DNA of 64,000 nt from the NCBI GenBank assembly GCA_045837725.1, contig JBEWZL010000221.1:124001-188000 (forward strand), written 5' to 3'. The position numbers were made by a program, and so were the translations under genes. Below are positions 19,379 to 57,396 of the stretch, piece after piece (position 1 is the first letter of the stretch; each line of letters starts with the position of its first letter). The notes beneath the pieces were generated by a model that did not search any database, was not told the origin of the DNA, and worked only from the letters and a program-made list of their open reading frames with translations. This stretch comes from Vermamoeba vermiformis. Taxonomy: Eukaryota.

Positions 19379-21922
19379 TTACATTACGAGCAATGATAGC
19401 AATACTAAGACCGCTGATATCATTAATTTGCATCCATCGGATACGATATTAACAGAGGGTTGATCTGTTGAGCTTTGCGGCACGTCGGTACCAGTGACTA
19501 CGAACGTTAGATCAGATCTACAAATAGTGGTGAAAGAACTTACCTTTTATAGTAACTACGGTCGAGGCAGTAGTACCAAAAGTGTCCTGTGCCATGAACG
19601 TAATGCCATGAGAGCCAATGTCAGTCTGTAAGGGCGCTACGACTAAAGTAATTGCAGAGGCGCTGCTTGATGACACGTTGACAAATGACGGCAGTGTTGA
19701 GTAGTTGAATGACACGCACGAGTCAAAAGATTCAGTCGCTTAAGATTAGGGCGTCAGGTATATGAACAATTGTACGTCGGATGGTAATTTGAAACTTACA
19801 AGTGCACGTGACAGTGATTGACAATTCATGATCGACGAGCACGTCGTATTCTTCGTTTGCGGAAATAACAGGTGGTTGATTCAATAAGGCTATAACGCAT
19901 AGTATCATAAGCATTGAGTATTAAAGAAATATAACAACGTACTTTTTGCAGCTAGCAACGGATTAATTCTTCCGAAACCAAACGTTGTGTCCTAAAATAG
20001 GCAATTAGATAGTGATACTATTAATCAAAGTAATGCAATTCAGCGTACTTGTCCGGCATCGCCCAAATCAACAGCAGTGCTGGCAAACAGGTCCATCAGT
20101 TCTGAGGCACCCATGCTCGGCTTGATCGCCTTCATCAGCGCTGAAATTCCGCTGACAATCGGTGTGGCCATTGAACAGCCAGTCCATTGTTCATAGCCTC
20201 CTGACTTGACTGTGCTCCAGATATTTGTTCCTGTTGAATTCCGATCGGATCAGTTTCGCCGAAGTGACTTTTCATTCAAGGACTTTCATACCTGGAGCAG
20301 CGATGTCAATGTACGAGCCAATGTTTGAAATAACGTTCCGTTCATCAGTTTCGTTGATGTTAGTCACCGCAAATGCGTTTGTGTAAGCGGCAGGGTACCA
20401 CGGCTTATTTGAGTCTGAAAGGTAGCTATTGCCCGCGCAGGCATTAACAATGATTCCTATTACTCTCATATTAATAAAGAATACGACTATGAACGGGACG
20501 TACCTTTGTTGTACAAGGCATTGACGGCATCTTCCATTGGTTGCCAGGTCGAGAAACCCTGTCAAATTAAAATTGTAAATTTGACCTCATAAAAATTATC
20601 AGTTAATAAATATGTTAAATAGCCGTGTTGCTAATTTTGGCCTTTCTGACAGGTGTCGCATCAAGACAACGGATGTGTCAAATTGACATGCCGCGAAATT
20701 TCCGTAGATTTACGTACACCAAGACTCAAGCTAACGATATCTGCGCCCAAATTAGCGGCGTCTAACATGCAAGCCACAAAGTCTTCATAAGTGCCCGAGT
20801 TCGTAAAGTCAAGGACCTTGCCGATAATTAAGTTGACGCCATATGATACTCCAGCAACACCTTTAAGATAGAGAATCAATTCAATTTGCGTTTGTGAAGT
20901 ATTCGTGCCAATAATATTCAAAAATTAACTAATTAGTTCACAAAATTTGAGTGCGTTTCAAATCTTTGCCGGCAATTAACCGAATATATTGAACGGATCA
21001 GACGTTCTGTAGATTTAAATTTATTCCTAACGTACCTATTGTATTATTGATAGTAGCGGCTACAATACCAGCCACGTGCGTTCCTAAAAGAAAAATGACA
21101 TCCGTTAGATCAGATTCAATTTCGAAGCTATTGTCATATTTATTGCTAAATATAGCATCACCATTAAATACGTACCATGACCGTATTCATCCTCAGCAAT
21201 GTCGTCTAAGTTCACATAATCGTACTGCCAGACAATTCTTGACGCATCCAGATCGGAATGCGATGCGATTCCAGAGTCGCAAATAGCAACGGTCTGATTA
21301 TAATCACGTTTAACTTGATGGTTCATCATATTCTTAAGGAGCAATAATAACGTACGATGTTCTTGACAAGAGTTTGTTGATACGAGATCAGATCCCAAAC
21401 ATCGCTCATTTGTAGCTTCGCCATATGCCACATTGAGCTCCATTTATCATCATTTGGTACTGCTCCGCCGAATCCTATTAAAAAGTATATCGTCAATCAA
21501 TTTAATTGTATTGCTAGCATTGCGCTAAAGATTTCAACAAGAATTTAATACCCCTTGGAATTTCATCGACATGAGAAAATCGCGGATCTGCACGCAGTTT
21601 ATCAATCGATACCGTATCGTCAACCTATTTATAATATCGTTAATTATATTATCAATTTTGTGAGTCGGAAATCATTGTGTTCGTGTGTATTAAGCCGATA
21701 ACAATAAAATTGAGAATAATCTTATGATAATAGTCATAATACCTCTATTATGAAGCCTCCTATCTCTTGGAACTCTCTCATAATCTTCCCGACTTCCTGT
21801 ACTACATCCACTGCTCGTTTTTTGGATGTTGGATCTGGTTTAACGTACACTCGTTTGCATTCAGCTAAGCAAGCAATAGAAATGACGCTCAACAATATAA
21901 TATGCTGTATCCGAATGAGCAT
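19379..21922 (-). CDS. Secreted, predicted GPI-anchored subtilisin (peptidase S8) with a C-terminal Ig/cadherin-like domain, copy A
   Basis: Signal peptide, short prodomain and catalytic triad motifs VAICDSGI, HG/THVAG and WTGCSMATP. Then a beta-rich domain (LNQPPVI...LPSFVN...DIGSHGITFMAQDTFG) and a hydrophobic C-terminus (...SDGCKLMISAVLVLLSLLVM*). Confidence 0.9.
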
Positions 21923-24900
21923 CACGCCGAGTGTTGTTCAGTTGGTTACAAAAATCATGAATGAGTGATTTGGGGCTTGAAATTGTCGTTTCCAAAATTG
22001 GACCCGTCGCTTTGAAAGTTAGTCAGGTGAAAACGGCTAATTAATTGCATGAATTGTAATTCGACATATATGCAGCAAACCTCTGATATGATAACGAAAG
22101 CTGATATCAGCGCGGATTTGCAAAATTTTGTGCTATGTTTTTCCGTGTGTATTATTGATATTAGAAATTATATTTTAATATTACATGTAATATGTCGGAG
22201 AGGTTTGTAAAACAATAGTCCGTACGTGGAGCTCACATCGTAAGTAAAATCAAAAATTGCTTTTGCAAGGTTACGAATTTCTGCAATTAAACAATATCAA
22301 ATAATTATTATATTTTTATCGTTTATAAATAGTTAGTTTTCAATGAGGCCGACTTCAAGGTTCAAAAAAAAAAAAATTTGATCGATCTTGTCCCCTGAAG
22401 TTATTATTAAGACAGGCCAGATCTATTAGTAAATACCTCGTTTAATTAATGTTTATAACTTGCATTTTTATGAAAGCTCGCTGGAATAATCTGTGGAAGA
22501 TCTGAATAAATAAAATGTGTGTTCCGAAGCATTTAAATGCTTAAGCATAACAAACTCCATCTTTTGATTAACGGCCATTAGTAGCTATATGGGCTTTTGG
22601 ACTCTAAGATCCCACGGGTCATTTGTGTTGCCCTTGGCCCGAATTGAAATAAATGGTAATTAACACGCGTCGATGAAAAGAAAAGCCTCAAGTGATACAG
22701 AAAATTTAGGTCATCCAACCAAGCGAGTTAAAATGGAAGCAGCAAGTTTGGTGATTGATCAGCCCGAGATCTTCGGAAGAATAATTTCTTACCTTATTTA
22801 TAAGCCAAATTATGCAATTAATTTTGCTTTAGCTTCGAGGAAGTAAGTATTGCGATAAGAAATCGTTTAGCGGATCTACAGCAAACGATTTACCAGAATT
22901 TTTTCGATTAAAATACTCAATTAATATTTGATTCAGGCTACACGAAAATTTGTAAAGTACGATATCGTGGAATTCGGCAGGATTTCAATTTTTGTTGTCC
23001 AGTAACGGTCGGATCGACAAAAATGCATTGGATCTGGCTTTACAAAAGATAGACAATGAAAGGCTGCTTGCTAAAAATTTCAAAATTCAGCAGAAAATTA
23101 CAGCTTATACACGTATGCGAGAGAATCGTGGACGCAAACCGACGCTAATGGGACCTGGATCCGTTGTCACCGAAGAGCCACAAAATTTCAACAAATAAAG
23201 TTACATTATAATATTATACAAATAATATTTAAATATTTTTTTCTATTTATAGCTAAAAAGAACGAGAATGTCTTTGTAAAAGAGTATCGTGAAATTTCAT
23301 CTTGGGGTCGGACACAACCAGCACTACGTGGGTAAGTTACAAAGTAATCATTTGTTATATTGAAAGAATATTTAACGCTGAAGTATAGCCTTTACATTGA
23401 ACTTGACGAAGGAGCTACGGATCCAAATCAGTTGATGAATGCAGGTACTTTCATCGTTTGCAGTGGTGAGGATCATGATTATGATGCAGAATGGGATGAA
23501 AGAGTCATATTTACGTATTCGTGTTTCTTCAAGTACATTTGCGACAATAAGAAGGCAGTTATTTTTGTCACACAGTACTCCGAGAATTACACCAAGCTCG
23601 CTGTTTATTGGAAGGTACGCATACAGTTAGCTAGTTATATGAATAGATTCGATTTTCAATTGCAAAAGAAAACGACAGTTGTGACACGTGTCATTTGTTT
23701 GACGTTTCATCGAAATTTCGTTCTTAACTGACAAGCAGCTTTATTTCATTGGTTGACTACCGGTACGACGTATTAATATGTTGTTAGTTTGATTTATTAA
23801 CTAAAGCAGTTGAAGCGGCCGGTTCTCTGCACGATCTAGCAAGAAAGCAACAAGCACGCGCTGGGAGAAACAAATTTTCTCGTTTGACACGTGCACTGCT
23901 TGAACTATTTGAAATTGACATTACCGATGAAGTGCTGCAAAAGAGCAGCGGATCCGAGTGGTTGTACGAGTGTTCCGCAAAAGCTTTCGTTGTTCAAACA
24001 TTGGCTGATTCCAAATTATAAATCTTTCCAAATTGCTACGATATTATTGTTTTATTTAAGCCTAGTAATTGTAACTAAAGTATAATTCGCTAGTAGCAAT
24101 AGTAGCAAGGAATCGAACTTGCATTACAGCACGAAGGTAATAAAGAATATGGCGAAGGCCAAGAACGCCGTTTTCTTGCTTCCGCTCGAGACATTGTTAG
24201 CTTCTAGTTGATTGGGTGAATTTGGCGATGGTATAGGCTCTGCAGTAACTACAACAATAAAAGTTAGTTAGCGTACTCTTGAGAAGTACTACATTGATCC
24301 GCATACCTTTTATAGTGACATCTTTTGTCGTTGAAGTGTTAAAAGTGTCAACTGCTGTGAAAGTAATAACGTATGAGCCAATGTCGGATTTTGACGGCAC
24401 TCCTTCCAACGTGATTGAAGAGATACTGCTCGATGACGCGTTGACAAATGCAGGGAGCGTAGAGTCGAAGCTGAATGATACACACGAGTCAAAAGATTCG
24501 CTCGCTTTTGAAGTTGTTAGTAACGGAGGAATTGTACGGACGGATTGAAACTTACAAGTGCAAGTGATATTAAGGGATAACATTTCGTCAACCAGAACGT
24601 CGTATTCTTCGTTTGCGTTAATAACAGGTGGTTGATTCAATAGGACTACGTAAAGATTGTTAGCGTTCGACAAAATTTTTTTTCGTGAAGTTCAACAAGC
24701 GTACTTTTAGCAGCGGCTAACGGATTAATTCTTCCGAAACCAAATGTTGAGTCCTTTAACAGGCAATTAGACGGTGATACTATTAATCAAAGTAATATAA
24801 TTCAGCGTACTTTTCCGACGTCGCCCAAATCAACAGCAGTGCTGGCAAACAGGTCCATCAGTTCTGAGGCACCTATACTCGGCTTGATCGCCTTCATCAG

Positions 24901-26071
24901 CGCTGAAATTCCACTGACAATTGGTGTGGCCATTGAACAGCCGGTCCATTCTTCATAGCCTCCTGACTTAACTGTACTCATGATATTTGTTCCTATTAAT
25001 AATCGTTTAGTTTTTTTTGTTAAAAATTGGTCGTTATTAGAGATTCACGGACATCTTTCGAAAAAGGCAAAGAAGACTTTCATACCTGGAGCAGCGATAT
25101 CAACGAAATCACCAGTGTTCGACATGCCGTTTCTTTGATCACTGCCATCAATATTTGTAACTGCATATGCGTTTGCATACGCGGCAGGGTACCACGGTTG
25201 ATTTGCATTTGAAATGTAGCTGTTTCCAGCACATGCGTTCAGTAGGACTCCTACATAAAGTTAATAAAACTCGGATACACTTACAATCGATATGTATGAA
25301 CCGGACGTACCTCTGTTGTACAAGGCGTTGACCGCATCTTCGAGTGGTTGCCACTGAGTAAAGCCCTATCATAAAATTAACTAATAGGCAAATATAACAG
25401 GCATAATGGCGACCAGGTCCGAAAACGGCAATTTTGACTTGTGTATGATAGTTAGTCTACATACGCCCACACTCATGCTAATGATATCTGCGCCCAAATT
25501 CGCTGCGTCTAACATGCAAGCCACGAGTTCTCCATAAGTACCTCCTTTCGTCGAGTTAAGGACCTTGCCGATAATTAAGTTGACTCCATATGCAACTCCA
25601 GCAATGCCTATTCGTCAAGACTTAGTACTACTCGCGGTAACAATCATATGAAGGTTACATACCAATTGTATTGTTGGTCGTTCCTGCAATAATGCCGGCC
25701 ACGTGTGTACCTAAGCACATCCGTTAGTTGAATCTTTTCTGCCCGCTTTATCATTAAATATAGCATTAATAGAACTTACCATGGCCTCCATCATCATCTG
25801 CTATATCATCGTCTGTCATATAATCGTACTGCCAGACAATTCTTGACGCATCCAGATCGGAATGCGATGCGATTCCAGAGTCGCAAATAGCAACGGTCTG
25901 ATTATAATCACGTTTAAATTGATGGTTCATCATATTATTAAGGAGCAATAATAACGTACGATGTTCTTGACAAGAGTTTGTGAATACGAGATCAGATCCC
26001 AAACATCACTCATTTGAAGCTTCTCCATATGCCACATTGAGCTCCATTTCTCATCATTTGGCACCGCTCCG
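21218..26071. repeat. Near-identical direct blocks shared by the two subtilisin paralogs (21218-21470 vs 25820-26071; also ~19950-20212 vs ~24703-24975)
   Basis: Alignment by eye. The ~62-nt intron in the first block differs at only 2 positions between copies. Confidence 0.85.
22673..24021 (+). CDS. Hypothetical spliced protein with an F-box-like N-terminus; internal exon structure uncertain
   Basis: MKRKASS...IDQPEIFGRIISYL (weakly F-box-like), then several GT-AG-bounded coding-like segments ending ...QTLADSKL*. One candidate acceptor gives an in-frame TAA at 22953, which an alternative AAG acceptor avoids. Confidence 0.45.
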
Positions 26072-26493
26072 CTAAATACTATTAAAAAGTACATCGTCAA
26101 TTATATCAATTGTACTGCTAAATTTAGATGCGTATAATGCGGGCTTACTTTCAGGTATTTCATCGACAAAGGAAAATCTAGCATCTTCTCGCAGTTTTTC
26201 AATCGATAGGCTATCATCAACCTGCGTTACAATTTTAATTAGAATTTTCGGATGCGAACGGAGAATGATAATGATTGCAAACCGCTTTCTAATGGTCATA
26301 ATACCTCTATTATGAATCCTCCTATATCTTGGAACTCTCTTCTAAGTTTGCCGATCTCTTGCACAAGATCTACCGCGCGTTTGTTTGAACTCGCTGGATT
26401 TGGTTTAACGTAAACTCTCTTGCATTCGCCTAAGAATGCAATAGATATGACGCACAATACGAAAACGATATGCTGCGTTCGTTGGCAGACCAT
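24124..26493 (-). CDS. Secreted, predicted GPI-anchored subtilisin (peptidase S8), copy B
   Basis: Same exon structure and triad motifs as copy A. C-terminus ...NVSSGSKKTAFLAFAIFFITFVL*. Confidence 0.9.
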
Positions 26494-26868
26494 CGTGTTG
26501 ACTCGCTGAAAATTTTTGTTTAAAAAAATAGTTGTCGGCAACCCGACAAATGTGGCAAACCTGGTAGATCACGTGGTCGAAACAACCGAAAAATTTGGCG
26601 AGTAAGTACTTGCGTGTAAATAACAGGTCGTCAAAACGTTGCCACAAGGGGTATGTAGATGTGCGGTCAACGGTATGACCAATGATCGTGCATGAATGAC
26701 TTCTAACCCTTGCCTGCCTTTGTGCGTTTTGCCCTGACAAAGAGGTACGAGAATCCGGTCAATTATTGTATTTTTTGCCTAATATGGCAGTCGCTACTTT
26801 TATTGCTTAACCAAATACTTTTCGCGTCCATAACACACGAAAGGAGACCGACATGTCCGAATAAAATT

Positions 26869-29199
26869 TCAGTTAAGAATAAGGAATGACACGAGAACGA
26901 CGACCAAGATGGACAATAAGTGGTATCCAAATCTAGTTGTTGCCGTGCTTACTCCAGGAGGTGAGGGAGATCTGCTTGGTGCTGATGAGGTACGTGGTGT
27001 AGTAGCGGTGTAGGGAGGAGAAGAGACTGGTGCAGGCACTGACACGATTTCTATATTACTTTGTTATGATTTATTTATTGCTAAGTATGAAGCAAACTTA
27101 CTCGCTGGAGTGACGGACCAAACTGGATGTGGATTAAAATTTTGTTTCAATTCCGGCCAGTTCGTAGCATTAACCATTCGGAAATATGCATCAGCAGTGC
27201 CAGGTACTCCTAATTGCACGGCAAACGAGATGGCAGGTTGTATATTGCCCCACATACTTTTCGGCCAAGATCCGATATCAAACTCGGCACTAAGGACTCC
27301 TTCTTGCGTACTTAGCCATGTCGGTGGCTTAGCGAATGTAGCAGCATAAATAGCGGACCAATCAGCCAGCCAGGGTCCAGCGCCGGTCAGATAGTCAGGA
27401 AAATTGACGGTAGAGACTGTAATGGTGTACGGAGCTCCATTGATGTACCAATAGCTATTAGACGGTCCTAATCTGCCTATAGCAGCCTTGCATTTCCATT
27501 GGAAGAATTCCATTGCTTTCGTGTTGTCCGCATCCGACACGGGCAGATCGAGCGAGATCGCATGACCCCATGCAGCGGTTACAAAGTCTTGTTGCCATAT
27601 AGCTACAACACTAGTAGCGTCACCATTGCCATTGTCATATCCTTCGCCAGGCTGAATCAGTCCAAAGTCGTTGTTGGCTTGTTGGATGTACTTTTCATGA
27701 TGGAACCGAATGTTGCTTTCCCAGCTCGCCTTGAAGTTGTTGCGATAGTCATCTGAATCGGGAGTGACAGATAGTGCATGGGCAAGGGCTCTAATCATCC
27801 AAGCTGAAGAACGCGTCTGAACGGCACCGAGAACTGGATGCAGCAAACCGGTACTGAAATTTCGCACAATTGCACCATCTGCAAGGCCCAAAAAGTTCGT
27901 AGTTGCTGCAAATTGCACTTGTTCCATGAATAACCATCGACCAGTCACTAAATAAGCCATGTAGCCTACTGACGGAGAATGTGCTGTGTCCCATCTCGGC
28001 GCAAGAGTTCCGTTGCAGCGCGGAGTGAAATCGTACTTGCTAGAACCACCATTATTATAGTACCTGCACGTGTCATCAATGACCAAATTAGGATAATCGC
28101 TAAATCGTAGAGGCTTCAAGGTGTGTTCATCGCGCCAGTGCAACGGATATCGACCCGCACTATAGCCATTAAACACGACGCCCTTGTACGCTATAGTCGC
28201 ATTCACAGAGGTCAAGTACACCACGTCATGTTCGGGAAGCAAACCAATAGGCCGTTGATAGCCAGGTGAAGGCATCTGATCGTTGTCAAAATCGAAGTTG
28301 CCTTGTTGTAAGGGCGCATAAGACCGAACTATTCGACCGAGTGCGTATTGACCTGCATCAGCGTTGGCAAAATACGAAGGAACGAGTAGTGAGGCTTGCA
28401 TGTAGATCGTGTCGTGGTGAACAGTAACTGCTGGATCTGTCGCGTCAAACCAATAAGAAAGAGCGGTCCCTAATAACAGAGGAGTGCGTGTATGAGTTGG
28501 CAAGTCAATTAAGTTGTTGAAAAGAGTGTTGCCGCCCAAATCAAACCTAAAATTAGCAGTTTTGTTGGTCGGATTTGGAACGCGGATGTAGCCATTTTCA
28601 ATCCAAGGAAGAACTTCGACCGCGCCTCCTTTATAAAGTCGTACATCTAGCCAGGCAACGAGATGAGGATCATTTCCAACTGGTTTGCGGTAGATCCAGT
28701 TCGACATCTGCCAGCCAGAGGTCCATTCCAAGTGAGGAGAGTCCCAATCAGCACTTTGCCATGAAACGCTCCCGTAGCTCTCGCAATCGATCGTAGTTGT
28801 AATACCGGTGGCCTTCAAGTCGCTCAGCGTGAGCGGAGAAATATTTGAGACGGTGGATGGACCCAGTGTAACGACCAAAGGAGTGTCTGCTGTAAGATCT
28901 GCGTGGCCAGAAATTACAGCGTACTTAAGGGAGCCATCAGACCAGTAGTTCTTTGGTACTACTTGCATTTCAGCGAGGTTGGATGAAGCGACGCCTTGCC
29001 CGGATGTGATGTGGCCTTTGACGAATGCGAAGCCCAAAGTGAAAGGTGCGCTGCCAGTGATAGGACTAAGTAGCGTAAAAGACATTGAGCCCGTAGGAGC
29101 GGGCACAGAGACACTGGAGTACGTCGTGTTGAGGCATGAGACGGATGTGGTCAGCGAGCAAAAGAGGGCAGCGAACAAAATTAGTCCGAGCGTGCGCAT
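26869..29199 (-). CDS. Secreted ~760-aa protein: bacterial-like catalytic-type domain plus Ser/Thr/Pro stalk and GPI-type tail
   Basis: Signal peptide MRTLGLILFAALFCSLTTSVSC, then a 2.1-kb uninterrupted exon. A single 51-nt intron (27051-27101) leads in frame to KIVSVPAPVSSPPYTATTPRTSSAPSRSPSPPGVSTATTRFGYHLLSILVVVLVSFLILN*. Family assignment (PcRGLX/YetA-like N-terminus) is from recalled motif resemblance only. Confidence 0.8.
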
Positions 29200-29488
29200 C
29201 TTGTTGAGTAATCGACAAATAAAACAATTCAATCAATCGGTTGGTTTGCTTTAAAAGCTGATATAAAAATGGGGACGTGTTAGTCCTGATGTCGTCCCTT
29301 ACTTAATCGGGGAAAATACCGTATGTTTCAGTTTTAAAGAGCACCAAGCTACGATTTTAATTGACAGGAGGCCTTATTCGAGTTAATTTTCACGTTTGAA
29401 AATGGGATTCGTAAGTTGATTATTCTCCGTCATACTTCAGTTCTATCGTGGTTTAAGTAATTGCAACACTTTGTTTTATGAACCTTGT

Positions 29489-30871
29489 TTAAATTGTTCC
29501 TATTACACGTCTAATTGATTGGTCTTTGAAGATTGATCGTGCAATCGGACCAAAGTCAAGTGTCACTCCTGGATATTTGACATGTGACACGATCAACGTC
29601 CAAATATCACGTGGTAGTACTGGCATTGACTCGTTTGAATGAGCGCAATGACTTGATCGTGCAATATTGTACAACAGCACTATCATCGATCGAACTCGTT
29701 CGTTCTGAAGTTTTCTGTTACGAAGTGTTATCTCTTTGATCTGCCTTTTATCAGTGTTCCGATATAATTCACAGTCTACTATTGATTCGTTCTCTCGGAG
29801 TATTGACAGGTCATTGAGCGGAGACTTCAAAATGAGTTCAAACTTTCGCAAAGACTGTGCCATTTTTAATCCATTTTTAAAGTCGATATTATCCACTATC
29901 CTATCAGTATTCATATTTAACAATAAATCTTCCAATACCGGAGAATTGGCGAGTATTTTTCCGATCGAAGAGTACAAATCTGGCATGCAGCGGTAGTTGT
30001 CGTAAAGTTCCATGTGTAAAATCCTCACGCTACTATCCGCCAAAGCATTAAATGTATCATATCTGGGGTCCTTGTTACAGTAAAATCCAAATTTCAGCTT
30101 CGTTAATGCTTTTGATTTTTGGATCAGCCGAACTAGATGTGGCATTGCCGGCACGGTGACCAGTATATGCGCCAATTCCAGTGATATTAATTTGTCATTA
30201 TGCTCGACAAAATATTCGCAGAATTCTTTGAATCCTTCCGCTTCAAATGGAATTTCGTCGCCAAAAAGAGATATCGCAGCGAATGAGAACTGATTGAAAT
30301 TCGTTCCACTTGCAAGTGTTGCTGCGATTTCGGTGAATAAATCAGTCCAGCTATCAATGCAAGGAACATCCAATTTGAAATACTTCGTTGGGCAGCGAAG
30401 ACCGTTCAGTTTTGTATTGAGTGGTGCACGTGAACTGTCATCTTCGGTGACTTCCAAAGTCACAAGATCGATATTGCAGTGATTATTATTGTTATTGTAC
30501 TCCTTAATTGCATCAAACAGGAGTTGGATGTGCTCGCGGGTTGTATTCGCTTCTAAATCAAAATTGATCTCGTTGATTTGATAATTCATGTTCGGTTGCT
30601 TAATATCATCAATAAAGTATTTAACGTCTTCTGCAAGCTGGGTTAGAGCGATGATGACTCTTTTAACATTCGGGTAATTCAAAATTCTGGTCTCTTTGTT
30701 TGATATTGTTATCTGAATGCATAATAATTAATATACATAATAATACATCTATAGGTATTTTTTTGGGTCGATAATAAAATCATACCATTTAATAAAAAGA
30801 GAAAATTAAAAGATAATTCGAAATCTTTGACCAAGCTCAATTAAAATAATTACCTCATTGATCTGCGACAT
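29489..30871 (-). CDS. RNI-like LRR protein with C-terminal F-box-like motif, copy A
   Basis: Micro-exon MSQINE spliced to a long exon containing ORF 29489-30682. LxxLxL repeats (LISLEL, LTKLKF, LEDLLL, LRKFEL). C-terminal VLPRDIWTLIVSHV. Confidence 0.75.
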
Positions 30872-31409
30872 GACTATATTGATATAAACTAATTTTGAGG
30901 CAATCTTGTGGTGCTGAGCCAATGACCAAAAAAAAAAAATGAAATCCGGATGTTGATCCAAAATACACCGCTAAAAACCAGTGCGGACCTTGTCCACAAA
31001 TGTCAGTCACGTTAATAAACCTAGATCAGCCCCAAAAAAGATTGCTCTCCAAACTCACTCAATGCCAAATAACACCGATTCTTGTGCGACGTTTCATCTT
31101 GATCCACCAAAATGACATTTTAGTAAGTCTTCGCTGAAGACTGTAATGTTTAAATCTCGCTCATTTTATTGATATATTACACGTCTAATCGATTGGTCTT
31201 TGAAGATTGATCGTGCAATTGGACCAAAGTCAAGTGTCACTCCTGGATATTTGACATGTGACACGATCAGCGTCCAAATGTCACGTGGTAGTACTGGCAT
31301 TGATTCGTTTGATGAATTATTGCAATGATTGGATCGTGCAATATTGTACAACAGCACTATCATCGATCGAACTCGTTCGTTCTGCAGTTTTCTATTACGA
31401 AGTGTTATT
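29501..31409. repeat. ~230-bp near-identical direct repeat (29501-29731 vs 31175-31409) forming the 3' ends of the two LRR-like genes
   Basis: Long identical runs such as GGACCAAAGTCAAGTGTCACTCCTGGATATTTGACATGTGACACGATCA occur in both copies. Confidence 0.9.
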
Positions 31410-32579
31410 TCGTTAATTTTGTCGGTCGGATTTGTCTTATGATTATGGGCATTAATTGGGCATTTGAATTGTATTAATGATTCATTTTCTTCTAACAAAT
31501 ATGAGACTTGCTCTTCGCTCAAGGGAAATTCGGGAAGTGAAAGCGATTTTAACGAGTGTGCTGTTTTTAACGCTTCTTTAAATAGCTTCTTGTGATTAGG
31601 ATTTTCGATTAATTCTCTATCAAATGACGTTACGATCAATTCTTCTAATTTTTGAGAATTTTTTATGAGACCAATGCACATCTCGAGGCTTTCGACTGTT
31701 AAGTTCTTTATGTTGCTATTCCGTATAGCGTCATACATGCTACTATCTCTCTTGTATAGGAAAGATGGAAATTCATATTTGAGATCTGTTAATGCTCGCG
31801 AATTTTGAATGAGTTGACTGATCTGTTGATAATTCTTGAGGCAAATATCGAAGTTGAAGAACTCTAATGATAACAATTGCTCGCTATTTTCACTAAAGTA
31901 TTCGTAGAATTGGGTAAATCCCTTGTCGAGCGTTAACGGGCAATCGTACATGAAATTTGCATCACGGAAGGAGATCTGATTGAAATTTGTTCCGCTCCGA
32001 AGAACCGACACTAGGTCTTGAAACATACTGTCAATATCATCATCGATCGAGGCACTAAATTTGAAATATTCTGTTGGTCTTTGAAGATTTTTGAGTTTTT
32101 CAAGAGATCCGATATTTTCTTCTTCATCCTCAGCAATATTAAGGCGTTCTATCATAATAGTCAAATTACGAATCTTGTGGCTACCGGTATTATTGTACTG
32201 TTCAATCGTTGAAAAGAGTAATTGAAAGTGCTCGTGTTTTGTGCGCGAATCCGCACAAAATATCACTTCGTCTATGACTAATGGCGGCTTAAGTACTTTT
32301 GGAACTTCAGCTATATCATTTGCATTATCTTTTAACTTTATATGGAACTGTTTGACCTCTTTGTTCGGAGATGTAATGGCGCGAACATTGAATATCTGCG
32401 GAAATAAATCAGAAAATTACAAATGACGAGGATAAAATTATTTTATCAGATTTTCACGCTAAAAACCAATTTTTCAACGTTATTGTATTTATGCAACGCA
32501 AGATGCGTTTTGGGCGAGAGCAAAACGTGTATTATGCTCATTATTTAGTCACCAACAGAAAATTACTCACGTTATTCAT
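31166..32579 (-). CDS. RNI-like LRR protein with C-terminal F-box-like motif, copy B
   Basis: Micro-exon MNN spliced to a long exon containing ORF 31166-32266. Colinear similarity to copy A (SGTNFNQ, LLSLEF, LKSLSL) and a near-identical C-terminus. Confidence 0.75.
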
Positions 32580-54737: not shown

Positions 54738-57396
54738 CTATATGTCCTCATCATCATCAAGGGAATCGTTTTCTTCACCTTCTTTAATGGGTATGGGTGC
54801 CAAACTCGTCAGTTGTTTCATCGATGGCATAGACCAATCGTTCTTGAAGAAATCAAGCATCAACAAGAATCCTGGGCCCGTTTGGCTGTCTTCGCTGGCA
54901 GGAATAGCGACGAAGCTGATTGGTGGAACAAGTAATTTTGGTGTAGGAATGTCTTCGAGCTCTACCCTAGCGGTCTCAAAGTCATTGAACGCGGCTAAAA
55001 AGGAAGTTAAACGTACGTTAGGTTTTTCAGAGATTAAGTCAAAAATATTATTAATAATTATAATTATTATTTTTAATACTTACAAGCAAAGTTGCAGAAA
55101 AGTGGCTCGTTGCCAAAGCCAATCATAATTTTGTCGTTTTCAATTAATATCTTCTCCTTATCGATTTGATATTCTTGATTGAACAAAACTAACGTAGAGG
55201 ATTTCACTTCGAACAGGCCTTCTTCCAAAAGTTCCTGCCAATTAGTATCGTCTTTTTCATAGCCTGCCATATATCGTTTCTTAATAGCTTTGAAATCGAT
55301 CGGGCCCAATATTGAATTCGCAGAAATGTTTTGTAATTTCCTGACTTTTCTCCATAAATTTGATAAAATGAAGGCTGAGGTCTGAGTGGCCGGATTTTTC
55401 GGATCCGAAATAACCTTTGAAATGCATTGCAATCCAAACGCTGTGAAAATGTTCGAGTTCGATGGTGTACCTTTGTCACGTGATCGACCATTAAAATAAT
55501 CCAAAACAGCAATGATCGCTATTTCCTTCAGATAGTCGTGTGGTGTACTTCCATTCACTGAACCAGGTTCATGAACGTAAGGGAACCAATAGTCGCATCC
55601 ATTCGTTGCAAACACAAAGTTGCCTCGCCATCGTTTTTGCAGGACTAAAGGCGGCGCGGAAGTGTCATCTGTCAAGCCCCAGTGCAAATTGTTGACACGT
55701 TCGTAGAGCTCGTGAGCGTAGCGTGAGAGTGCAGGTTGAAAAGTGCTTTGAAGTGTCATGTAGACTGCTGAGTTGAACAGTTTGCCGACTTCAGGCGTGT
55801 GGTTCAATTTCCAGTATTTAAAAATGAGCTCGGTGCGTAAAAACACTTTGTTTGTCTTCACGAACGGATTGCCTTCGTGCAAATACTGCTGATCGAAAAT
55901 GACGCAATCGAATTGTTTCACTTTAGTCAGCTCAAACGCGCTGTTTTTCTCGGAATTTTCGTCGCTATTATCCCACACCTTCATAACAGGACTGCCAGAT
56001 CCGCTACTGAGATAAATAATCATCGTGAATTTTGACACTTGCCCTTTAGCAGGATCATAGTAAGGAGTGTCCATATGGGCTTCAAACTTTGCATCGCCCG
56101 GGGCAAATCTGTTGCAGCGAAACACATGATTCACCGCCGTAAACCTCTTGCAATCCAGGTCGGCTGAATCTTTTTCCATAGCTTCAAATGCCTCGGTCAA
56201 CGCGCTGCTTAACTTCTCAGAAGAGAAAATGAAGCGCTCGCCACCTCTCGTGCTCGAATTTGACGGTTTTTGATAAAGTCCCAACTGATCCAATTGTAGG
56301 AGCAGATCCAGACTCGACCCACCAATAGTCGTTTTGTAAATATGCATCGTCTCGGATAAATTTTCAAGAGGAGACATTGTAAATGCCATGCTTTGTTTGT
56401 CGCCAAGATGTAACGCTCGATCCAGCGGCAAAATGCACTCAAAGTTGTGATAGGACAAGTCGCGACCATCGACCCATACTGCATATAGTGGGCTGTTTGC
56501 GTCGTTATTTTTGTTGTCATCACTTTGTTTTTCGCTCACTTCATCGTCTTCGTCTTTGGTCGCTTTCTTGTGTCGGTTTGAGGGTAACTTTGGGATGCTT
56601 TTTGGAGCCAGCTGTGCGACAGATTGAAGCAGCGATTGATCGATGTCAGAGAGCTCTTCGAGGTCTTTGATATATTTGAGAATTCGTCTGTTCTTCGAGG
56701 GGCAGAAAGAGAACGGCAGTGATTGAAACTCCGCGGAGGGCACAAATTCGTCATCCAAAATGTCCAGTAATTTGTTCAAAACTTGCTTCTCGCTTTGATC
56801 TAACCAGCCACGCGAGTCAGCCAACCATAAATCGCGCACTCCAACGCAAAAATAGAGTGCTTCTTGTTCGTTCAGAGAAGTCAGTATTGAGGGATCCCTA
56901 CAAACTTGTTGCATGAATGCCAGAGACCTTTTCGAGGCTAATTGGTGAGTACTTTTGTCGATTATAAGCGGCCATAGCTTTCCAGTGATAATAGCTCCTG
57001 AAACAAGATTTTGCATCAAAAGTTGATCTTCGATCTCTGCAGGCTCGAGAGCGTTGTTGAGCTTTTCATCGCATAATATCAACACTTTATCTTTTTTGTT
57101 CACTTTGAGCGTTTGAACCTTGCAATACCTTGCGATTTGCGAACTGTAATAAATAAAATTATTCAATTATTAGATCGAGGTTAGATCTGATCAAAAATTC
57201 AAATCTGCTTACGAATCATTAACACGTTCATGTTTGTTTTTTATAGATTCCTCTTTTTCCGTTTTCCTGGAGCTGATAATAATTTTAGATCTTGAATCAT
57301 TAATACCAGCGATTGCTTCTAAGTTACGTACCTAATTTTTGCTTTCTTATTCGGAGCAAGATCTTCTTTATTGCTCAATTTTCTTTTGCGTTGCAT
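54738..57396 (-). CDS. Large protein containing a 2OG-Fe(II) oxygenase-like domain (4 exons)
   Basis: FRCNRF..GDAKFEAHMDTPY (HxD), FTMIIYLS, VIFDQQYLHEG (distal His) and KVFLRTELIF (2OG-binding R) within the 2.1-kb exon. N-terminal exons MQRKRKLS...; final exon ends DDDEDI*. Confidence 0.75.

Follow-up and report, generated by a model that had tools for sequence, protein, structure and literature searches.

How an amoeba came to carry a bacterial-type protein on a eukaryotic stalk, and what this protein does for its owner, is the question raised by a gene at positions 26869-29199 (minus strand) of a Vermamoeba vermiformis DNA stretch of 64,000 nucleotides (contig JBEWZL010000221.1, positions 124,001 to 188,000; hereafter the window). 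A preliminary description made from the sequence alone had proposed that a bacterial-type domain was acquired horizontally and domesticated as a surface protein by a single intron. The analysis reported here leads us to a chain of steps that we consider, as a whole, evenly balanced between right and wrong: the gene, named here the barrel gene after its largest domain, would encode a stalked surface depolymerase with a glycosylphosphatidylinositol (GPI)-type anchor, directed at the floc or capsule polysaccharide of prey bacteria. The individual links of this chain differ in strength and are presented below.

Gene structure, copies and origin of the barrel gene

The gene starts with an ATG at 29199 on the minus strand, and exon 1 (29199-27102) remains open up to a splice donor. 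The intron (27101-27051) is a 51-nt GT-AG intron (GTAAG...TAG) in phase 1 with 23.5% GC, and exon 2 extends from 27050 down to the stop codon at 26871-26869, adding 59 codons and giving a spliced product of 759 amino acids; the unspliced frame would stay open to 27064. Four public runs (X1, X5, X7, and X9) were compared with the gene. The preliminary description had named transcripts retaining the intron as evidence that would speak against its model; instead, exactly the 51 intron bases were skipped in one contig of X1 (depth 2.95, 67 letters on the short side), the only one of the four runs to show the junction. X1 derives from a near strain (95-99% alike), its RNA status is the tool's guess, and its 16 contigs are confined to bins covering the barrel gene. 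The junction was not covered by X5, with a single 229-nt contig inside exon 1, nor by X7 and X9, with 3 and 9 partial reads, respectively, and none on the barrel gene.

Two full paralogs on contigs C61 (85% identity) and C95 (84%) bring the number of intact barrel copies to three. In both, a phase-1 intron of 49 or 51 nt with a TACTAAC-type branch point occupies the same site and the tail is the same, and because a paralog intron is 49 nt long, the tail is in frame only after splicing. The intron sits where single-domain bacterial relatives end, the C-termini of P0005, P0006, P0008, P0035, and P0062 falling within a few residues of the donor. The alignment of exon 2 with the tails of a paralog and of P0004, a metagenome protein of 73% identity, scored above 500 of 500 shuffles. 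At the DNA level, the conservation of exon 2 exceeds that of the intron by a modest margin (75-77% versus 63-67% of aligned columns), so the argument for the tail is carried by frame and protein. In P0004, 17-18 additional residues occupy the intron position ahead of the shared tail, the pattern that a prokaryotic gene caller would produce by reading through a stop-free intron; the P0004 contig was not found in two metagenome scans, and its intron is deduced from this read-through protein. The single intron placed by the preliminary description at 27051-27101, behind the globular domain and adding a stalk and hydrophobic tail, agrees in its exact coordinates with the X1 contig and with the paralogs, and we hold the gene model to be correct with very little doubt. 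The barrel copies are under purifying selection, with dN/dS values among them of 0.10, 0.10, and 0.14. A further copy, on contig C200, is a 64-codon remnant; the region C200:41039-44233 (L004) duplicates window positions 25233-29375 at 89-94% identity, minus ~26747-29036, and retains the promoter, the first 64 codons, and the downstream subtilase.

The closest matches were three eukaryote-type sequences, followed by relatives at 48-56% identity (best 120 of 555 listed), including, among the matches listed, proteins of Roseateles, Massilia, Rubrivivax, and Bdellovibrio; the family comprises 1479 clusters at 50% identity. In a tree of 274 rows, obtained by thinning 376 full domains by identity, the eukaryotic rows came out as a single clade, nested beneath nine successive nodes each supported by at least 90. 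A 59-row IQ-TREE analysis recovered the eukaryote clade (100/100), its grouping with two Bdellovibrio sequences (99/95), and the addition of the unplaced P0005 (99/99), the clade being nested among Burkholderiales, Bdellovibrio, and phage sequences. A topology that united 17 bacterial and phage rows, chosen after the first tree was seen, to the exclusion of the amoeba was rejected by the approximately unbiased (AU) test (p-AU 1e-13). The nested position and the rejected outside placement bear out the horizontal acquisition for which the preliminary description had proposed BLASTp and phylogeny as a check, and they make transfer from a bacterial or phage-type source close to certain on phylogenetic grounds. 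The sister relationship to Bdellovibrio is tentative: the amoebal and Bdellovibrio sequences have a low-GC residue bias in common and only two rare shared residues. Bdellovibrio as a proven donor was not accepted because of this bias, an order that shifts on site stripping, and a partner propeller (see below) nearer to Burkholderiales (50% versus 35-44%).

The transferred gene is integrated among eukaryotic neighbours (DOCK, Rab, RasGAP, kinase, subtilase, and leucine-rich repeat genes in the window), has a spliced intron, and has paralogs on other contigs. The named HSP90 relatives that were compared, at 71-73% identity, come from Gocevia, Endostelium, Nematostelium, Soliformovum, and Balamuthia, which are all Amoebozoa, with one fused plant record besides, and they mark the host as an amoebozoan. 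Among 268 homologs listed (best 120 of 555 and 150 of 1479), the stalk and tail occur only in P0004. One homolog deposited as a nematode protein, P0085, shares 89% identity with a Burkholderiales protein and 89-92% with Burkholderiales-type sequences, and is probably bacterial contamination of the nematode assembly.

Two compositional features emphasized in the preliminary description stood in part. Exon 1 is richer in GC than the window (48.9% versus 40.5%), but this is not diagnostic: two other 1-kb bins are richer still, and the GC content at third codon positions (GC3, 0.475) is bracketed by the values of 15 other window open reading frames (ORFs; 0.365-0.621), so raised GC was rejected as a sign of transfer. 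Introns are common in the window, with 66 strict intron-like sites versus 14 in each of two controls, but the 2.1-kb exon is not unique, since 6 of the 24 window ORFs of at least 150 amino acids exceed 400 codons, one of them having 697 amino acids.

Fold, conserved residues and predicted surface anchor

The AlphaFold (AF2) model of the protein (pLDDT 92, pTM 0.92) places beta domains at residues 40-262 and a helical barrel behind them. The beta-rich part, assigned to residues 39-262 (28414-29085) from PF19501, hhalign, the model, and conservation, consists of a RIFT-barrel-like domain and a second beta domain holding Glu201; the (alpha/alpha)6-type barrel, residues 263-699 (27103-28413; pLDDT 95.5), is the putative catalytic domain. 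The model thus has a PL26-like architecture, and in the structure comparison called for by the preliminary description the best match to the whole protein was indeed PL26 PcRGLX (Foldseek E 6e-7). The structural alignment (VIA), with Z 11.4, rmsd 5.0, and 494 positions aligned over residues 37-711 at 13% identity, is a distant one (TM 0.27). For the barrel alone, the best matches were GH88/GH105 (Z 14.9-15.9, rmsd ~4, ~290 aligned, 6-10% identity), among them 4Q88 with a shared (alpha/alpha)6 barrel (Z 15.9, rmsd 4.2, 294 aligned); PL26 reached Z 10.7, and 4OZW, which we take to be the EPS-operon depolymerase AlgL (EPS, exopolysaccharide), ranked 41 with Z 10.4. All of the top ten barrel fold rows are sugar-acting or annotated glycosyl hydrolases.

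At the sequence level, the sole Pfam match to E 1 is PF19501, the N-terminal RIFT barrel, at E 0.0068 and 16.6 bits, under the cut-off of 22.1. This family is carried by 15-29% of members in the three nearest Atlas clusters, and hhalign matched the first domain to PL26 at 88% (E 2.8e-6), in line with the likeness of the N-terminus to the first PcRGLX domain recognized earlier. PF21345 and PF21346 matched neither the query nor 35 relatives (best 5 families per protein), and PF21346 had no match in the amoeba's own genome, the control matching in 2 of 14. There was likewise no Pfam match of the query to GH88/GH105 family profiles to E 1, no hit among PDB sequences for the query or for two profiles, and no PHROGs or NCBIfam family matching P0001; a PL26 search across 301 genomes found only the known copy. 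Because the profile alignment with PL26 is limited to the first domain and PF21345/PF21346 are unmatched, we concluded that this is, as modelled, a separate family with a PL26-like build; membership in PL26 was rejected on the same grounds, the barrel not being alignable by profile. Mapping the PL26 catalytic residues onto the barrel was also abandoned, as the profile alignment stops short (the PL26 alignment is of low diversity). In the PcRGLX complex 5XQO the catalytic Tyr is changed to Phe at chain position 437; this Tyr is presumably Tyr458, with Asp, Arg, and His as partners.

The PL26 PcRGLX/YetA-like proteins (5XQ3, 5XQG, 5XQJ, 5XQO; PF19501, PF21345, PF21346) have the same domain order (RIFT-like beta, second beta, helical barrel), but their length is ~900 residues compared to ~660 for the amoebal domain, at 10-13% identity, and they differ from the present family in its EPS-synthesis and phage-virion contexts and from the amoebal protein in its stalk and GPI-type tail. 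The GH88/GH105 unsaturated uronyl hydrolases (4Q88, 4WU0, YteR 1NC5, UGL 1VD5), which act on uronate-containing glycans, resemble it in the barrel but are single-domain proteins with Asp-based catalysis, whereas the invariant barrel residues here are Arg and His.

Glu201, Arg356, His407, and Arg463 show no substitution in any of the 274 rows, Trp467 and Arg470 are conserved in 99% of them, and the amoebal rows retain all six residues; the codons of Arg356, His407, and Arg463 lie at 28134, 27981, and 27813, respectively. Asp325, Asp357, and Asp538 are 90-96% conserved. Barrels of the (alpha/alpha)6 type carry their active sites at helix starts, and in the AF2 model Arg463, Asp325, and Trp535 are at helix starts and His407 is just ahead of one. 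Fold and conservation together make a glycan-cleaving enzyme the probable identity of the barrel protein. The Arg/His core suggests uronate binding and beta-elimination, and we lean toward a lyase rather than a hydrolase.

A signal-peptide-like stretch at ~residues 1-22 (29134-29199; mean Kyte-Doolittle 2.8), noticed in the preliminary description, is kept in both paralogs and in the relative P0124. It is followed by a short low-confidence Ser/Thr/Pro linker at residues 23-38 (29086-29133; pLDDT <50 for residues 1-34), and the last residues of this pre-domain linker match the Pro-rich linker of the bacterial lipoprotein P0006. At the other end, by composition and tail alignments, exon 2 encodes a Ser/Thr/Pro stalk (65% S/T/P) with a candidate small-residue cleavage site and spacer (26920-27050), and then a GPI-signal-like terminal hydrophobic segment of 16 residues and the stop codon (26869-26919), with a mean Kyte-Doolittle value of 3.3 and no charged residue in the last 20. 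Inspection and hydropathy revealed the layout of a GPI signal (N-terminal signal, small-residue cleavage site, spacer, hydrophobic end) in seven of seven tails, none with cytosolic residues behind the terminal helix, and the genome encodes the GPI transamidase subunit Gaa1 (PF04114 above cut-off, E 4e-26). The barrel protein is therefore likely to be anchored at the surface in GPI fashion.

Among bacterial relatives, a twin-arginine (Tat) signal and lipobox pattern precede the domain in 46 of 71 ORFs, compared to 0 of 52 ORFs of phage relatives. Because so many bacterial relatives are already Tat lipoproteins, the anchor appears to have been swapped rather than surface display invented: in place of an N-terminal lipid anchor, the amoebal protein would have gained a signal peptide and, at its C-terminus, a stalk ending in GPI fashion. 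The proposed domestication as a surface protein consequently survives as regards the added stalk and tail, but not as regards the novelty of display.

Bacterial and phage contexts, partner genes and the upstream element

A scan of GTDB yielded 137 relatives in 169 stretches, of which 79 loci were examined. EPS or PEP-CTERM neighbours (at least two families within ~8 kb) were found in 33 of 79 bacterial loci versus 0 of 20 control stretches, all from one Massilia genome, and by genus in 6 of 7 Rubrivivax, 4 of 4 Noviherbaspirillum, 9 of 16 Massilia, and 3 of 6 Rhizobacter loci. The markers above cut-off included an exosortase A-associated ligase, a decarboxylase, an O-glycosylation ligase, and PrsK; those below cut-off (best hits) included an amidotransferase, a Wzx flippase, and TviB/TviC-like amino-uronate enzymes. 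According to a study of Aquincola, EPS and PEP-CTERM genes are needed to form flocs, and flocs are believed to withstand protozoan predation (PMC9850573). Another arrangement in bacteria is a three-gene form, in which a small Tat lipoprotein precedes a barrel gene and a gene for a 370-460-aa partner (L068, L069, L045, L044, L060, L072, L075, L007); most of these barrels and partners have no signal peptide and share a MAQ-SSN-F-type start, and piggy-back export or docking on the lipoprotein is possible.

From IMG/VR, 57 relatives were obtained in 303 stretches (56 loci). Virion genes (terminase, portal, capsid, neck, or tail) adjoin the phage copy in 11 of 12 loci examined, and one close relative is fused to Ig and SU10 adaptor domains. 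A weak relative, gp39 of EBPR siphovirus 1 (23% identity, E 4e-6), lies beside an annotated glycosyl hydrolase gene. The commonest phage neighbour, in 12 of 56 loci (L087, L088, L094, L095, L100, L107, L108, L115, L123, and L125-L127), is a ~590-aa LamG/Ig protein; neither this protein nor another partner of the family, a Pseudoduganella 421-aa protein, was found in the amoeba's own genome with the queries used, a single one for the LamG/Ig protein.

A Kelch-like beta-propeller accompanies the barrel in many of these loci: of 79 bacterial loci, 36 encode it fused to the barrel and 10 as a gene of its own, and of 56 phage loci 23 have the fusion and 10 the separate gene, these counts being lower bounds (the ORF caller missed the target in 12 bacterial loci). 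The amoeba has eight propeller genes as tandem pairs on four contigs (L169-L176; C284, C82, C260, C246). Three of the pairs differ very little within themselves or from one another and could represent haplotypes, a stop codon interrupts the frame of one C260 copy, and the C246 pair has an extra internal intron. In each gene, an exon for a signal peptide comes first, then one for the propeller, which starts at the linker of the fused bacterial protein, and a phase-1 intron separates the latter from the exon for stalk and tail. The amoebal propellers form one clade among Burkholderiales-dominated sequences at ~50% identity. As to a common origin of the tail exons, the score between those of barrel and propeller was reached by 3 to 327 of 500 shuffles, and a genome search with the barrel tail did not return the propeller tails.

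Upstream of the barrel gene, GGGAC/GTCCC elements at 29272-29298 (minus strand, 77-99 nt before the ATG) form a candidate shared regulatory site. All 10 related starts examined (three barrel genes, one remnant, four propeller genes, and two beta-helix genes) have GGGAC or its complement 70-105 nt upstream of the ATG, and none of the other signal-like starts listed has it; as background, 37 of 319 window bins (200 bp) hold one such element and 3 of 319 hold two. A 16-nt version of the motif, written after two promoters were seen, occurs four times in the genome, before one barrel gene and three propeller genes. The doublet with 11-nt spacing is not enriched genome-wide (25 matches versus 30 in the control) and gave no new member; its matches include six barrel/propeller promoters, and 1 of the 19 others preceded a hydrophobic start, which resembles a membrane-protein exon. 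We treat barrel/propeller co-regulation as a lead, not a result.

The beta-helix genes (L147:187-1629 on C79; L185:2443 onward and L145/L146 on C103 and C111) encode secreted right-handed beta-helix proteins (PF13229, with weak Chondroitinase B likeness) that have an S/T/P stalk, a hydrophobic tail, and an upstream GGGAC. A stalk and tail can also be added without an intron, because L147 has none. Tandem secreted genes with S/T/P-rich or hydrophobic C-termini stand beside the C61 barrel gene (L187) and the C284 propellers (L189) and do not have the GGGAC element. Elsewhere in the window, an intron-rich secreted subtilase (S8) with Ig-like repeats lies just downstream of the barrel gene (19900-26500, minus strand), and 20488-21892 resembles part of it, suggesting a tandem copy. 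Two long intron-free ORFs (29489-30727 and 31166-32416) share a near-identical C-terminal block, similar to one in the gene adjoining the C61 paralog, and have no convincing Pfam match; a 697-codon open frame at 55073-57166 has no Pfam match at E 0.001.

Proposed function, rival explanations and meaning

We propose that an amoebozoan ancestor acquired a polysaccharide-processing barrel gene from a proteobacterial-type donor or its phage, that the coding region was kept intron-free while a eukaryotic signal peptide was gained, and that the old C-terminus was turned into a splice donor joining a stalk and GPI-type tail. The barrel gene would then have been duplicated to three intact copies, and the propeller would have been acquired as well and rebuilt with the same kind of intron and tail. 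The protein would enter the endoplasmic reticulum, become GPI-anchored, and stand on an O-glycosylated stalk at the cell surface or phagocytic cup. The host amoeba presumably eats bacteria, and the barrel would cut the acidic (amino-uronic) EPS of PEP-CTERM floc-forming or capsule-forming prey, most likely by beta-elimination with Arg and His holding the uronate carboxylate; prey cells freed by this cutting would be engulfed. The propeller may bind or further process the same polymer, and phages appear to cut EPS likewise, from the virion. By analogy with the bacterial and phage contexts, we favour bacterial EPS as the substrate, with some reservation.

Several observations weigh against this reading. 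Splicing is supported by one low-depth contig of a run guessed to be RNA, and two true RNA read sets contained no read on the barrel gene. The Bdellovibrio sister link weakens, with P0005 moving closer, once the 20% most biased columns are removed, and it is not seen for the propeller. Identity to any solved structure is 6-13%, and the barrel matches the PL26 profile with a probability of 0.1%. No Tyr is invariant, the best being Tyr416 (250 of 274) and Tyr591 (248 of 274), and the conservation of Asp325, Asp357, and Asp538 would fit a hydrolase; on both counts hydrolysis is the less likely but still credible chemistry. None of the 18 Roseateles or 2 Bdellovibrio loci has EPS neighbours, and 46 of the 79 loci in all fall short of the two-family threshold; the comparison favours the loci, as the marker families were picked from them, and its control is one genome. 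Finally, many phage copies lie among head or neck genes, not tail-spike genes, which also fits a binding role.

The last point leads to the alternative that the protein is a non-catalytic EPS-binding lectin or adhesin, serving as a prey receptor in the amoeba, a host-binding decoration on phage heads, and an EPS tether in bacteria. In phages, the gene is often placed between those for capsid and head-tail proteins, and the copies come with Ig, LamG, or fn3 domains; known enzymes gave no catalytic residue that could be transferred to the barrel, and stalked GPI-type proteins are often receptors. However, invariance of Arg, His, and Glu over 274 sequences at 26-56% identity to the query is more typical of an active site, and the nearest folds are enzymes, so we regard a lectin as improbable, though the most credible of the rivals. 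Slightly less credible is a glycan-cleaving surface enzyme used for nutrition on a non-prey substrate, either a uronate polymer of plants or algae (PL26-like) or the unsaturated oligosaccharides that other lyases leave behind (GH88/GH105-like). The best fold matches (PL26 for the whole protein, GH88/GH105 for the barrel), the Roseateles copies outside EPS clusters, and the amoebal beta-helix proteins with similar tails, which could be upstream lyases, would suit such an enzyme, whereas the phage virion modules and EPS biosynthesis clusters point to a bacterial polymer and PF21345/PF21346 are unmatched.

An EPS depolymerase acting inside the cell, with a C-terminal transmembrane anchor on the phagosome or lysosome or in shed form, would instead digest the capsule after uptake. 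The terminal hydrophobic helix could be a membrane anchor, and in amoebae the plasma membrane becomes the phagosome membrane; against this, the seven tails have no cytosolic residues after the helix and hence no room for a sorting signal, and Gaa1 is present, making intracellular action about as doubtful as a non-prey substrate. Bacterial contamination, an assembly chimera, or a dead transferred fragment could be suspected from an intron-free bacterial-type ORF, a fourth copy (C200) without most of the gene, and two RNA read sets without reads on it. Such an artefact is extremely improbable given the eukaryotic neighbours, a spliceosomal intron whose removal is seen in a contig, the three copies, on as many contigs, with dN/dS of ~0.1 and host-like GC3, and the relative of 73% identity with the same tail.

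The surface depolymerase that we prefer to these rivals has partial counterparts in known systems. AlgL-type EPS-operon and phage capsule depolymerases likewise combine an exported glycan cleaver in a polysaccharide cluster with the same activity in a virion, but no sequence relation to them was found; known phage depolymerases are mostly beta-helical tail spikes. A predicted alginate lyase of Acanthamoeba castellanii, described as not yet characterised, has been proposed to break bacterial biofilm EPS; it belongs to a known family with a known polymer, and the available part of that source speaks of neither a stalk or anchor nor a partner domain or phage counterpart (PMC7641382). Protists are known to acquire glycan enzymes by transfer, and what the analysis adds is the EPS-cluster context, the phage copies, the paralogs, and the partner propeller acquired alongside. 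Neither the family nor its double capture nor its sharing among predators turned up in the literature searched; most subscription papers fall outside it, and this is not proof that they are unpublished.

In its widest form, put forward tentatively and as less likely than the steps above, the proposal is that the barrel founds a new polysaccharide lyase family whose barrel and propeller unit would be used by PEP-CTERM floc formers on their own EPS. This unit would have been captured by three predators, namely tailed phages (in the virion), Bdellovibrio (as a lipoprotein), and the amoeba (GPI-type and split), the last deploying an anti-floc kit of separately stalked barrel, propeller, and beta-helix enzymes under one promoter element.

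Flocs and capsules are thought to shield bacteria from grazing. How amoebae get through them can now be tested, as the proposal offers a named protein, likely catalytic residues, a partner, and a candidate substrate, the PEP-CTERM-type EPS of Rubrivivax, Massilia, Noviherbaspirillum, and their kin. Such an enzyme could serve against sludge flocs and biofilms. The locus illustrates how a bacterial lipoprotein may be refitted for a eukaryotic surface via introns at domain boundaries, and it would provide a first functional handle on a large unnamed family common to bacteria, phages, and predators.

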